A stretch of DNA of 61,422 nt. Origin: Phycisphaerae bacterium (GTDB lineage Bacteria; Planctomycetota; Phycisphaerae; SM23-33). Under the pieces are notes generated by a model. The model saw only the letters and a program-made list of their open reading frames with translations, was not told the origin of the DNA and did not search any database. Where the stretch lies: positions 1 to 61,422 of the forward strand of contig JAFGJE010000042.1 of assembly GCA_016929245.1 (NCBI GenBank), given 5' to 3'. The translations under genes were made by a program, and so were the position numbers. Below are positions 1-59,654 of this stretch, in pieces. Position 1 is the stretch's first letter, and each line of letters starts with the position of its first letter.

Positions 1-84
1 AGTTGTCCCGGGTTTAACGAGGCCACCGGGAACCTCGGCACGCGACCAACGCCTCACCCGTCCGGTCGAATCCAATTCGCCCCC
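1..84 (-). ncRNA. ssrA: tmRNA, 5' portion (truncated by window edge)
   Basis: Reverse complement reads GGGGGCGAAUUGGAUUCGACCGGAC...GCGUGCCGAGGUUCCCGGUGGCCUCGUUAAACCCGGGA. This has the tmRNA 5' signature GGAUUCGAC and the pseudoknot-1 pairings CGAGG/CCUCG and UCCCGG/CCGGGA. Confidence 0.93.
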
Positions 85-57934: not shown

Positions 57935-58480
57935 TTATATATGAATCGTCTCGCCGGTGGTGCGGGATTTGTTTTCCTGGAGTTTGTCTTCCTGGGATTT
58001 GTCTTCTTTGGGTTTGTTCTCTTTGGGTTTTTCCTCTTCTTTGGGTTTGTCTTTTCGGGCGGGATCGATGGCCGGGCTTTGGATGTCCAGGGAGTGAATT
58101 TTCCACCCCCCGTTTTGCCAGACCAAACCCAGCCGCAGCGTTCCCTCGTCCTTCGCCCAGATCACCTTGTACAAATAGTCCCCTTCGGTGCGCCCTTCAA
58201 AAGTTCGAATTCGATATTGCACCAGGCTGTGCTTCTCCGGGGCGCCGAGATATTCGTGCAGTCCCTTGGCGAGCTTGGATACATCGTCCCGGCGATTGGC
58301 CTGCCGGAAGCTCTCGGTGGTGTAATTCTCATACAACGAATCCACCTGGCCGGCGTCGAGCAGCTTCAGCACGACATCCGTCGTCGCGTCGGCCTGCTGA
58401 TTTTTTCTCGACGTCGAACAGCCGCTCGCTACTCCCGCCGCGACGACGCCGATCACGATCCAACACCAGGTGCGTACCAT
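57935..58480 (-). CDS. Lipoprotein with charged C-terminal 5-residue repeats
   Basis: Lipobox ASGC; tail KPKEE-EKPKE-NKPKE-DKSQE-DKLQE. Confidence 0.72.
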   Translation of the reverse strand: MVRTWCWIVIGVVAAGVASGCSTSRKNQQADATTDVVLKLLDAGQVDSLYENYTTESFRQANRRDDVSKLAKGLHEYLGAPEKHSLVQYRIRTFEGRTEGDYLYKVIWAKDEGTLRLGLVWQNGGWKIHSLDIQSPAIDPARKDKPKEEEKPKENKPKEDKSQEDKLQENKSRTTGETIHI

Positions 58481-58672
58481 CGTTCCATCCTCAATAACCG
58501 GATTTTTGAATCAATCCCACAATCCAAAGCGTGTTATACAGGAAATACCAAAATTGCCATGCGGGTACAACAAAAACCACACGATCACATACACAAAAAA
58601 CCTTTGGAAGAAATCGAATTCCCTCACCAGGCGTTTCCACACAATCGGTTTTCTGCCATTGAATCCATCCGT

Positions 58673-58713
58673 GTGGATAATTTTGTCCACTTTTCATGGA
58701 TAATATTCTCCAT
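58673..58713. promoter_or_regulatory. Two tandem 18-bp palindromes, putative enhancer (bEBP) sites
   Basis: GTGGATAATTTTGTCCAC (58673-58690) and ATGGATAATATTCTCCAT (58696-58713); both TGGA-N8-TCCA, offset by 23 bp. Confidence 0.6.
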
Positions 58714-58840
58714 TTTCTCCATGTTCCCTCCAAAGAGCAGCCACAATTCCAACAGAGTCGCCAAAAGCGAATGTTCTATATCATTTTATAAAAAAAGGAC
58801 TTATAGAATAAATTATTAATATTGACTCTTGGTTCATTGA

Positions 58841-58856
58841 TGGCACACGGGTTGCA
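58841..58856 (+). promoter_or_regulatory. Sigma-54 (-24/-12) promoter
   Basis: TGGCAC-ACGGG-TTGCA matches the TGGCAC-N5-TTGCW consensus with exact spacing; predicted +1 near 58867. Confidence 0.82.
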
Positions 58857-58866
58857 ATATAGTAAA

Positions 58867-59470
58867 CCAGTGAGGACCGGCAAGGAGGCCGTGACAAGTT
58901 AGGAGCGACTACGAAGCCGGTTGTGGCTGGGAACAGTGGCTCCGGGCGAATCAGGCACTCCGACAAAGCCGCACGTCGGACCTGAGGGAACGTCGGTGAG
59001 GCAGGAGACCCCGCCGGTCTGGAAAAACCGTTTAGGGTTTTACGGGCCTTCTACGCGGTGGAACGGTTTCACCATCGGCCGACGCGAACAGGATTTTGTT
59101 CGAGTGCCTGAAACGGCAAGGCGATTCGCGAGCCTCCCACCGGTTCACCGGCGCCGACTCAACAATCCGCCGATCCCGCGCGTGAACATTATTTCATAAT
59201 GTAACACATTCGTCGGAGGCAGGGCCGAAAGAATGCCGCGCGAAATGGAGATCGCACACGCCCGGATGATAACGTTCCGGGGTTCCGGGAAATGGAGGGA
59301 CCGGAATCCCGGCCTAACGCCCAACCGCTCGGGGGGGTCGCTCCCGCCCTTCGCTTCGCCGAAGACGTGTGCAAAATGAATGTCGTGGGTTTACAACCGT
59401 TTCCCGTTCGTGCTCGGCGGGAAACGAAATGAACCCACGACAGGATTTTTGCCCGTGGTCCTCCAGGACA
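58867..59470 (+). ncRNA. Candidate structured GGA-rich sRNA (CsrB/RsmZ-like); 3' end uncertain
   Basis: No credible ORF; about 20 GGA motifs by hand count, several in hairpin loops; long-range helix TCAGGCACTC/GAGTGCCTGA. Confidence 0.55.
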
Positions 59471-59590
59471 ACGTCAACCCAACGATACCGTCGCCATCTC
59501 GGGTAACCACTCGCCGGTCAACCACCGGCCTGGGCCCGGCGCGTCCAAAACGACCGCCGGGCCTGTCTCGTATCCGGGGAACCAACCAAC

Positions 59591-59629
59591 AAAACGGGCC
59601 TCCGACGGATTCTGTCCGCCGGAGGCCCG
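59591..59629 (-). terminator. Intrinsic terminator of the PEP-CTERM gene
   Basis: CGGGCCTCCG...CGGAGGCCCG stem with a U-tract on the minus strand. Confidence 0.75.
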
Positions 59630-59654
59630 GTACATTTCCGCCACAGGAAGGAAG

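Follow-up and report, generated by a model that had tools for sequence, protein, structure and literature searches.

The window analysed here comprises 61,422 nucleotides of contig JAFGJE010000042.1 from a Phycisphaerae bacterium (GenBank assembly GCA_016929245.1). Near its right end a 1174-bp gap between two minus-strand genes (58481-59654) contains no credible open reading frame (ORF), and within this gap we find a gene for a non-coding RNA behind an exact sigma-54 promoter. The gene is real but restricted to its genus: it recurs in the only same-genus genome available for comparison (G001, hereafter the congener; the source genome is G000). Its product is probably a sigma-54-dependent, activator-dependent, stand-alone structured RNA that would act in trans, with the transcript ends placed from the promoter and a terminator-like hairpin and an activator predicted from the upstream DNA. 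An earlier note, made from the letters of this DNA alone, had read the region as an independently evolved, sigma-54-controlled Csr sponge rich in GGA-bearing hairpin loops, and had named as checks the presence of rpoN and csrA, an Rfam scan and covariation across relatives.

The promoter at 58841-58856 is the window's single exact match to the consensus TGGCAC-N5-TTGCW; chance would give 0.03, any match at all turns up in 3 of 100 shuffled sequences, and the whole 4.16-Mb genome has seven. The earlier note had placed a -24/-12 promoter at this position, pointing into the RNA, and both the match to the consensus and its conservation in the congener bear this out. The source genome also encodes RpoN (PF04552, 202 bits), as that reading had anticipated, together with nine matches above 200 bits to Sigma54_activat (PF00158); the congener has seven. 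Some consensus sigma-54 promoters elsewhere in the source genome have activator genes nearby. A diverging pair about 290 bp apart, at G000:C57:6883 (-) and 7170 (+), lies about 3.7 kb from the activator gene C57:10911-11408, and about 2 kb separate a promoter at C106:6363 (-) from an activator match at C106:8375-8875. The contig of the RNA promoter, unlike these, has no activator gene.

Upstream of the promoter stand two tandem palindromes (58674-58712) that are absent from the earlier note, whose region begins at 58673, at the first of them. Both share the form TGGATAAT-N2-TNTCCA, which occurs nowhere else in the source genome, and these near-identical elements begin 167 and 144 bp before the promoter, within the 100-200 bp expected for an activator site, the role we predict for them. 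A hairpin flagged by a terminator scan at the start of this region is palindrome 1 itself. Among 401 genomes of the class, the tandem pattern is found in two, the source genome and the congener, and a control pattern has 0 hits. The spacer between palindromes and promoter is 128 nt long in both genomes and A+T-rich in both (0.67 in the source genome, 0.64 in the congener), and its sequence aligns poorly. Judged by its layout, the arrangement of tandem palindromes, A+T-rich spacer and promoter would correspond to the usual enhancer architecture for a sigma-54 activator.

Comparison with the congener reveals that this architecture is conserved as a unit together with the RNA. An 881-nt DNA query run against 41 genomes (the source genome and 40 relatives) matches only the source genome and the congener, where the unit lies on the minus strand of locus L004, from about 2075 down to 1490. 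There the palindromes are again 23 bp apart and the promoter, TGGCATagaggTTGCA, lies exactly 167 bp from palindrome 1. Palindromes, promoter and exact spacing have thus been kept while the spacer sequence diverged. Three blocks of the RNA align between the genomes. Block 1 (58867-58910), the first 44 nt, is better conserved than the rest of its alignment (250 columns, 168 identities); block 2 (59203-59361) is identical at 114 of 166 positions; and block 3 (59489-59584) at 74 of 97. Between the blocks lie about 290 nt and 127 nt in the window, versus about 68 and 26 nt in the congener, and the RNA measures about 0.7 kb here and about 0.39 kb there.

The neighbouring genes differ as well. In the congener the unit is flanked by uvrA (convergent) and a LacI-type gene (divergent), as opposed to the DUF4019-like and PEP-CTERM genes of the window. 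The uvrA orthologue of the source genome (93% identity over 438 residues) sits mid-contig on C120 (L043) and is followed by a different gene of 491 codons on the same strand, versus the RNA unit beside uvrA on G001:C189. Because the unit is kept whole between different genes in two genomes, the stretch from palindromes to terminator behaves as one independent gene. The best-supported account of its history has the unit arising recently, relocating between gene contexts and lengthening as stem-loops are inserted. Its position has changed between two species with UvrA proteins as close as those just described.

These comparisons also bear on the possibility that the locus is a decaying remnant, for instance the orphaned leader of a lost operon, and that the two copies are alike only because the species are close. 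Restriction to one genus, the large insertions and deletions between the copies and the weak terminator in the window would all suit such a remnant. Decay would not be expected, however, to leave a patterned conservation that spares both palindromes, the promoter, the exact distances between them and three blocks of the RNA but not the 128-nt spacer, nor stem changes that preserve pairs (described below), nor a whole unit in two different gene contexts. We therefore regard a remnant as very unlikely.

Searches beyond the two genomes return no further homologue. The RNA has no paralogue in the source genome. A block-1 pattern allowing up to 3 mismatches occurs at 12 places in 92 genomes of the family; the 10 places outside the source genome and the congener have no upstream promoter and are no commoner than matches to a reversed-pattern control. 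A covariance model of the core block yields only weak hits in the same number of family genomes (at most 24.8 bits), none with the promoter or the motifs. Of two metagenome scans for homologues, one gives 0 hits and the other 3 chance hits, and a scan of a genome-contig collection gives 7 chance hits. A synteny search downstream of uvrA, covering 30 loci, produced one sigma-54-like match, in G084, which we rejected as a homologue because its surroundings are a repeated palindrome with other ORFs alongside. There (G084:C207, L044 2500-2640, minus strand) a palindromic repeat (…ACACATGCTTCTGC-R-AGCAGAAGCATGGCACCC…) occurs twice after a 208-codon ORF and mimics a -24 element by chance.

The RNA is non-coding, with no reading frame conserved between the two copies. 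Comparison by tblastx returns only short fragments broken by stops, spread over all six frames, and the gaps in the nucleotide alignment are mostly not multiples of three. It is nonetheless worth weighing whether a short frame is translated, making the locus a small-protein gene or a dual-function RNA. Open frames do exist, for example the longest, of 92 codons (58921-59199), and one of 48 codons (59233-59379), and AAGGAGG and AGGAG motifs resembling Shine-Dalgarno sequences occur close to the 5' end. The start codons, however, lie 2 or 14 nt from these motifs, the 92-codon frame falls wholly inside an expansion present only in the window, and neither frame is kept in the congener. The G+C content by codon position is flat in the short frames (for example 0.60/0.57/0.62 for the 92-codon frame); in four neighbouring genes it runs at 0.56-0.68, 0.40-0.47 and 0.66-0.81 for the three positions. 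Pfam gives no match in the three frames tested from the RNA region. Translation of any short frame is thus extremely improbable, and the statement in the earlier note that no believable protein gene follows the promoter holds.

Predicted fold energies are better than those of dinucleotide shuffles for the window RNA (z -5.0, 20 shuffles) and the congener RNA (z -3.2, 100 shuffles). The 5' module contains the hairpin CGGC-AAGGAG-GCCG (58878-58891) and AGGAGCGAC (58901-58909), which place two GGA triplets 18 nt apart. Within the core block, the hairpin at 59277-59312 has 11 pairs predicted by RNAalifold, of which six are unchanged in the congener, four are changed on one side and one on both sides. 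Contigs from two other public sequencing runs, derived from relatives 91-96% alike, both carry G59287A plus C59302U (alignment columns 92/107), and the pair 59287/59302 is accordingly seen in three states: G-C in the window, G-U in the congener and A-U in the contigs of the two runs. The terminator-like hairpin comprises 12 pairs, one of which is changed on both sides between the genomes (G-C to A-U). It is followed by a U-rich tail in the congener and by a weak one in the window. In addition, GGAGCGAC (58902-58909) in the 5' module is complementary to GUCGCUCC (59337-59344) in the core block in both genomes. Coordinates of these and the surrounding features are collected in Table 1.

Table 1. 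Features of the RNA locus and its flanks, in window coordinates.
Feature	Position	Strand	Basis or remark
Gene of 181 codons, weak DUF4019 match	57935-58480	-	Profile match
Enhancer-like palindrome 1, TGGATAATTTTGTCCA, predicted sigma-54 activator site	58674-58689		Unique in the genome with its twin; kept in G001
Enhancer-like palindrome 2, TGGATAATATTCTCCA	58697-58712		Begins 23 bp after palindrome 1; same 23-bp spacing in G001
A+T-rich spacer between enhancer and promoter, 128 nt	58713-58840		Length kept in G001, sequence not
Sigma-54 promoter TGGCACacgggTTGCA (-24 GG, -12 GC)	58841-58856	+	Exact consensus; homologous site in G001 is TGGCATagaggTTGCA
5' module, start near 58867 inferred from the promoter	58867-58910	+	Best-conserved stretch of the transcript
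Lineage-specific expansion 1, about 290 nt (about 68 nt in G001)	58911-59202	+	Holds three GGA hairpins of the earlier note and the non-conserved 92-codon frame
Conserved core block, includes GUCGCUCC (59337-59344)	59203-59361	+	114/166 identical
12-bp hairpin with 12-nt loop carrying AUGGAGGGA	59277-59312	+	AUGGAGGGA identical in G001
Lineage-specific expansion 2, 127 nt (about 26 nt in G001)	59362-59488	+	Long stem-loop, arms 59371-59391 and 59432-59452
Conserved 3' block: 15-nt UCUCGGGUAACCACU (59497-59511), identical in both genomes, and small hairpin (59513-59529)	59489-59532	+	Alignment with G001
G+C-rich terminator-like hairpin; inferred 3' end about 59565-59575	59533-59563	+	Conserved in G001
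PEP-CTERM gene, 444 codons	59655-60989	-	Convergent with the RNA gene

What such an RNA would do depends largely on whether it carries repeated protein-binding sites, as the sponge reading supposed. The GGA counts made by hand in the earlier note are correct (10 GGA versus 2 TCC in 58867-59106; 20 GGA in 58867-59470), and all seven GGA hairpins it listed exist at their places. Its description of the RNA as GGA-loop-rich does not survive comparison with dinucleotide shuffles. Total counts of 10, 20 (in 604 nt) and 25 GGA compare with 7.9 ± 1.9, 16.5 ± 2.9 and 20.0 ± 3.2 in shuffles, and fractions of 0.20, 0.155 and 0.085 of the shuffles reach them. Local hairpin loops contain 13 GGA in the window RNA against 9.1 ± 2.5 (0.093) and 7 against 6.6 ± 2.1 in the congener RNA (0.49); hairpin loops of the minimum-energy folds contain 2 against 0.8 (0.20) and 1 against 0.6 (0.47), respectively. 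The congener RNA as a whole has 11 GGA in 391 nt, where 11.6 ± 2.3 are expected, and its loop tests give fractions of 0.47-0.76.

Escherichia coli CsrB (NC_000913.3, 369 nt) served as a control with the identical script. It contains 22 GGA against 14.7 ± 2.4 (0.003), with 15 against 6.6 in local loops, 9 against 1.6 in loops of the minimum-energy fold and 16 against 4.4 in unpaired positions, each of these three reached by 0 of 300 shuffles. The test therefore has power, since CsrB passes every version of it. The genomic background points the same way: 300-nt windows across the genome contain 6.8 ± 2.9 GGA, those at the locus contain 5-10, and 17% of all windows reach 10. With a density that is average for the genome, the description of the RNA as GGA-rich is unsupported. 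Nor does a CsrB-like region emerge elsewhere in the source genome, where the 16 GGA-densest 300-nt windows all lie inside open frames of at least 238 codons.

The individual hairpins are conserved only in part. Three of the seven persist in the congener, namely the hexaloop of the 5' module, the AGGAGC site and the loop of the large hairpin; of the other four, three lie in stretches that are missing or unaligned there and one is present without its GGA. In a relative about 94% alike over a 149-nt stretch, the hairpin at 59085-59102 loses its GGA (59091-59093) and two stem pairs, a weak observation that comes from one low-depth contig. The ORF-less RNA gene under sigma-54 control that the earlier note proposed is thus upheld, and the Csr sponge is not, since loop GGA is unenriched, an outcome that the note itself had listed beforehand as speaking against it. 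Repeat and motif scans find no repeated motif within either RNA. Because the RNA has no repeated protein-binding motif, a multi-site sponge of the CsrB type is unlikely and regulation in trans is favoured.

A narrower role in CsrA control deserves separate consideration. The source genome encodes CsrA (PF02599, 86.2 bits, G000:C17:44836-44991), as the sponge reading presupposed, and so does the congener; csrA is found in 22 of 25 family genomes searched, the source genome included. FliW is a protein antagonist of CsrA. It (PF02623) is found in 0 of these 25 genomes, whereas 6 of 7 sister-family genomes and 7 of 9 from other families of the class have it, typically with its gene a few hundred bases away from csrA (an example locus for these observations is G030:C10:231411-232123). 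Both the source genome and the congener encode flagellin. As far as profile searches can tell, FliW seems to have been lost from a family that retains CsrA and flagellin, and the cited source describes the CsrA-FliW system as ancestral with several independent losses (PMC13443453). Hfq (PF17209) is not found in the source genome, which is 92.6% complete, and CsrA is the only global RNA-binding regulator that was both looked for and found there.

These circumstances invite the proposal that the RNA is a CsrA antagonist or decoy, titrating CsrA through a few conserved GGA hairpins in place of FliW. Its sites would be two GGA motifs near the 5' end (58884 and 58902) together with the AUGGAGGGA loop (59292-59300). 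The C-AAGGAG-G hexaloop looks like the consensus obtained by selection for CsrA binding, and a CsrA dimer binds best to sites spaced 18 nt apart. The presence of csrA in nearly all family genomes, the missing FliW, the flagellin genes and the failure to find Hfq are all congenial to such a decoy and keep a weak form of the idea alive. The properties of the RNA itself argue otherwise. Its GGA content, total or in loops, is not enriched in either copy (fractions of 0.085-0.20 in the window and 0.47-0.76 in congener loops), whereas CsrB stands far out in identical tests (22 against 14.7, 0.003, with loop counts reached by 0 of 300 shuffles); its GGA density is average for the genome; four of the seven hairpins are absent or changed in the congener; and the relative at about 94% has no GGA at 59091-59093. 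Both 5' GGA motifs, moreover, have conserved complementary partners within the RNA, which matches no Csr/Rsm model in Rfam (best hit to any family, E 0.35) and is found in one genus only, whereas FliW is missing family-wide. We consider a CsrA decoy unlikely.

A broader version is quite unlikely too: that the FliW-less family would regulate CsrA through young, lineage-specific decoy RNAs, represented here by one that is sigma-54- and enhancer-controlled, of low valency and not CsrB-like, with the 5' GGA pair 18 nt apart and the invariant AUGGAGGGA loop as its binding sites. If true, an environmental signal sensed by the activator would release CsrA targets by way of the decoy RNA. The retention of CsrA in a family where FliW was not found may be of more consequence than the RNA itself, which is a weak candidate for what controls CsrA there.

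We thus favour an activator-dependent structured RNA, for which the following sequence of events can be envisaged. One of the approximately nine activators encoded in the genome would bind the two palindromes and, by looping of the 128-bp A+T-rich spacer, reach the sigma-54 RNA polymerase positioned at 58841-58856, and the transcript would run from near 58867 to the hairpin at 59533-59563. The resulting RNA would possess a core made of the 5' module, the 12-bp hairpin with its AUGGAGGGA loop, the 15-nt stretch near the 3' end and the terminator hairpin, into which two lineage-specific stem-loop expansions appear to have been inserted. Action in trans is the most likely mode, and would proceed through a few conserved exposed stretches, either by pairing with targets or by low-valency binding of a partner; the candidates for such contacts are the 5' module, the AUGGAGGGA loop and, before the terminator hairpin, UCUCGGGUAACCACU.

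Expression receives a hint from metatranscriptome run X2, in which contigs from a close relative of 153 nt and 249 nt align to 59024-59172 (7 differences, 2 gaps) and 59246-59455 (6 differences, 2 gaps). Cover of the flanking genes in X2 is limited to pieces of 34-54 nt, and metatranscriptome runs X4 and X5, from the study that probably yielded this DNA, give no cover of the RNA; we count neither as evidence.

Several observations weigh against the activator-dependent, trans-acting RNA. The expression hint is weak because RNA libraries can carry DNA, and the contigs give neither strand nor ends. The terminator hairpin in the window has no good U tract and is not called by the terminator scan. 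The long-range helix between 58902-58909 and 59337-59344 appears in the minimum-energy fold of the congener RNA but not in that of the window RNA, and is neither supported nor refuted because it contains no variation. Covariation, one of the checks proposed in the earlier note, is present as compensatory changes in the core hairpin and the terminator, but it is too thin to settle the global fold, because only two full copies and two partial variants bear on it. No target is found for the conserved 15-nt UCUCGGGUAACCACU with up to 2 mismatches allowed, and since Hfq was not found in the source genome, pairing RNAs may lack their customary helper there. Lastly, three GGA hairpin loops, two of them 18 nt apart, are conserved, as a CsrA decoy would have them. 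Directly shown are the layout of promoter and enhancer together with its conservation, the lack of any conserved frame, the changes that preserve structure and the ordinary GGA content. What likelihood the favoured account and the three rivals leave falls to some other explanation.

Two further features of the window lie outside the RNA gene. On the minus strand at 59595-59629, just past the RNA's own hairpin, a G+C-rich hairpin of 15 bp with TTTTGTTGGT after it is likely the terminator of the PEP-CTERM gene. At the opposite end, positions 1-84 (minus strand) contain the 5' part of a transfer-messenger RNA gene (Rfam RF00023, 50.7 bits) truncated by the contig end.

To place the RNA among known families, both copies were scanned against Rfam, as the earlier note had proposed. 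Neither matches any of 4227 models, Csr/Rsm or unrelated, and the best hit (E 0.35) falls far under every gathering score. Its gene, like those of CsrB/CsrC and RsmX/Y/Z, is ORF-less and stands alone between a promoter and a terminator of its own; some GGA triplets fall in loops, and csrA is in the genome. The RNA differs from them in its background-level total and loop GGA, where CsrB lies far above in identical tests, in its lack of a match to their Rfam models, in its sigma-54 promoter and, relative to CsrB, in its length of about 0.7 kb, roughly twice as long. A GacA/UvrY-type box motif has no match near the locus; the window contains three matches with 3 mismatches, all elsewhere, where 5.2 are expected.

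CrcZ and CrcY of Pseudomonas are described in the cited reports as sigma-54/CbrB-driven RNAs that antagonize Hfq/Crc (PMC5113210, PMC4063720). They resemble the present RNA in being several hundred nucleotides long and in having a sigma-54 promoter and an enhancer-binding activator, but they show no sequence or Rfam similarity to it, and Hfq, their target, is not found in the source genome. Neither copy of the RNA contains AAnAAnAA, the A-rich Hfq-binding motif of the CrcZ type, or (ARN)x3 (0 matches). Shorter RNAs offer a second comparison, among them GlmY, a sigma-54-dependent small RNA. Qrr1-5 and NrsZ are likewise presented as sigma-54-dependent small RNAs in the sources cited here (10.1101/2021.07.01.450815, PMC4253122). 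All three kinds share with the present locus a stand-alone RNA gene, a -24/-12 promoter, upstream activator sites and, presumably, action in trans. The present RNA is 4 to 7 times longer and bears lineage-specific expansions; it belongs to a different family and to none of the groups from which those RNAs were reported, and has no known chaperone.

OLE, GOLLD, ROOL, HEARO and raiA are large structured bacterial RNAs of unknown function, taken here as in Rfam. The present RNA is like them in its size (0.4-0.7 kb), in combining a conserved core with variable stem-loop insertions and in folding better than shuffles, but it matches none of the 4227 models, and a complex fold cannot be claimed because the RNA is restricted to one genus, with far too little covariation. 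Our literature search turned up no sigma-54-dependent regulatory RNA of this kind for Planctomycetota. What has been learned of such RNAs comes from a small number of systems in proteobacteria, and this locus, with its dedicated enhancer, exact promoter and large structured RNA bearing lineage-specific expansions, provides a clean, testable example that shows how fast such RNA genes arise, move and grow. The kind is already known, from Qrr, NrsZ and CrcZ behind their sigma-54 promoters, and the RNA described here adds to it a new and, among these, far larger family.

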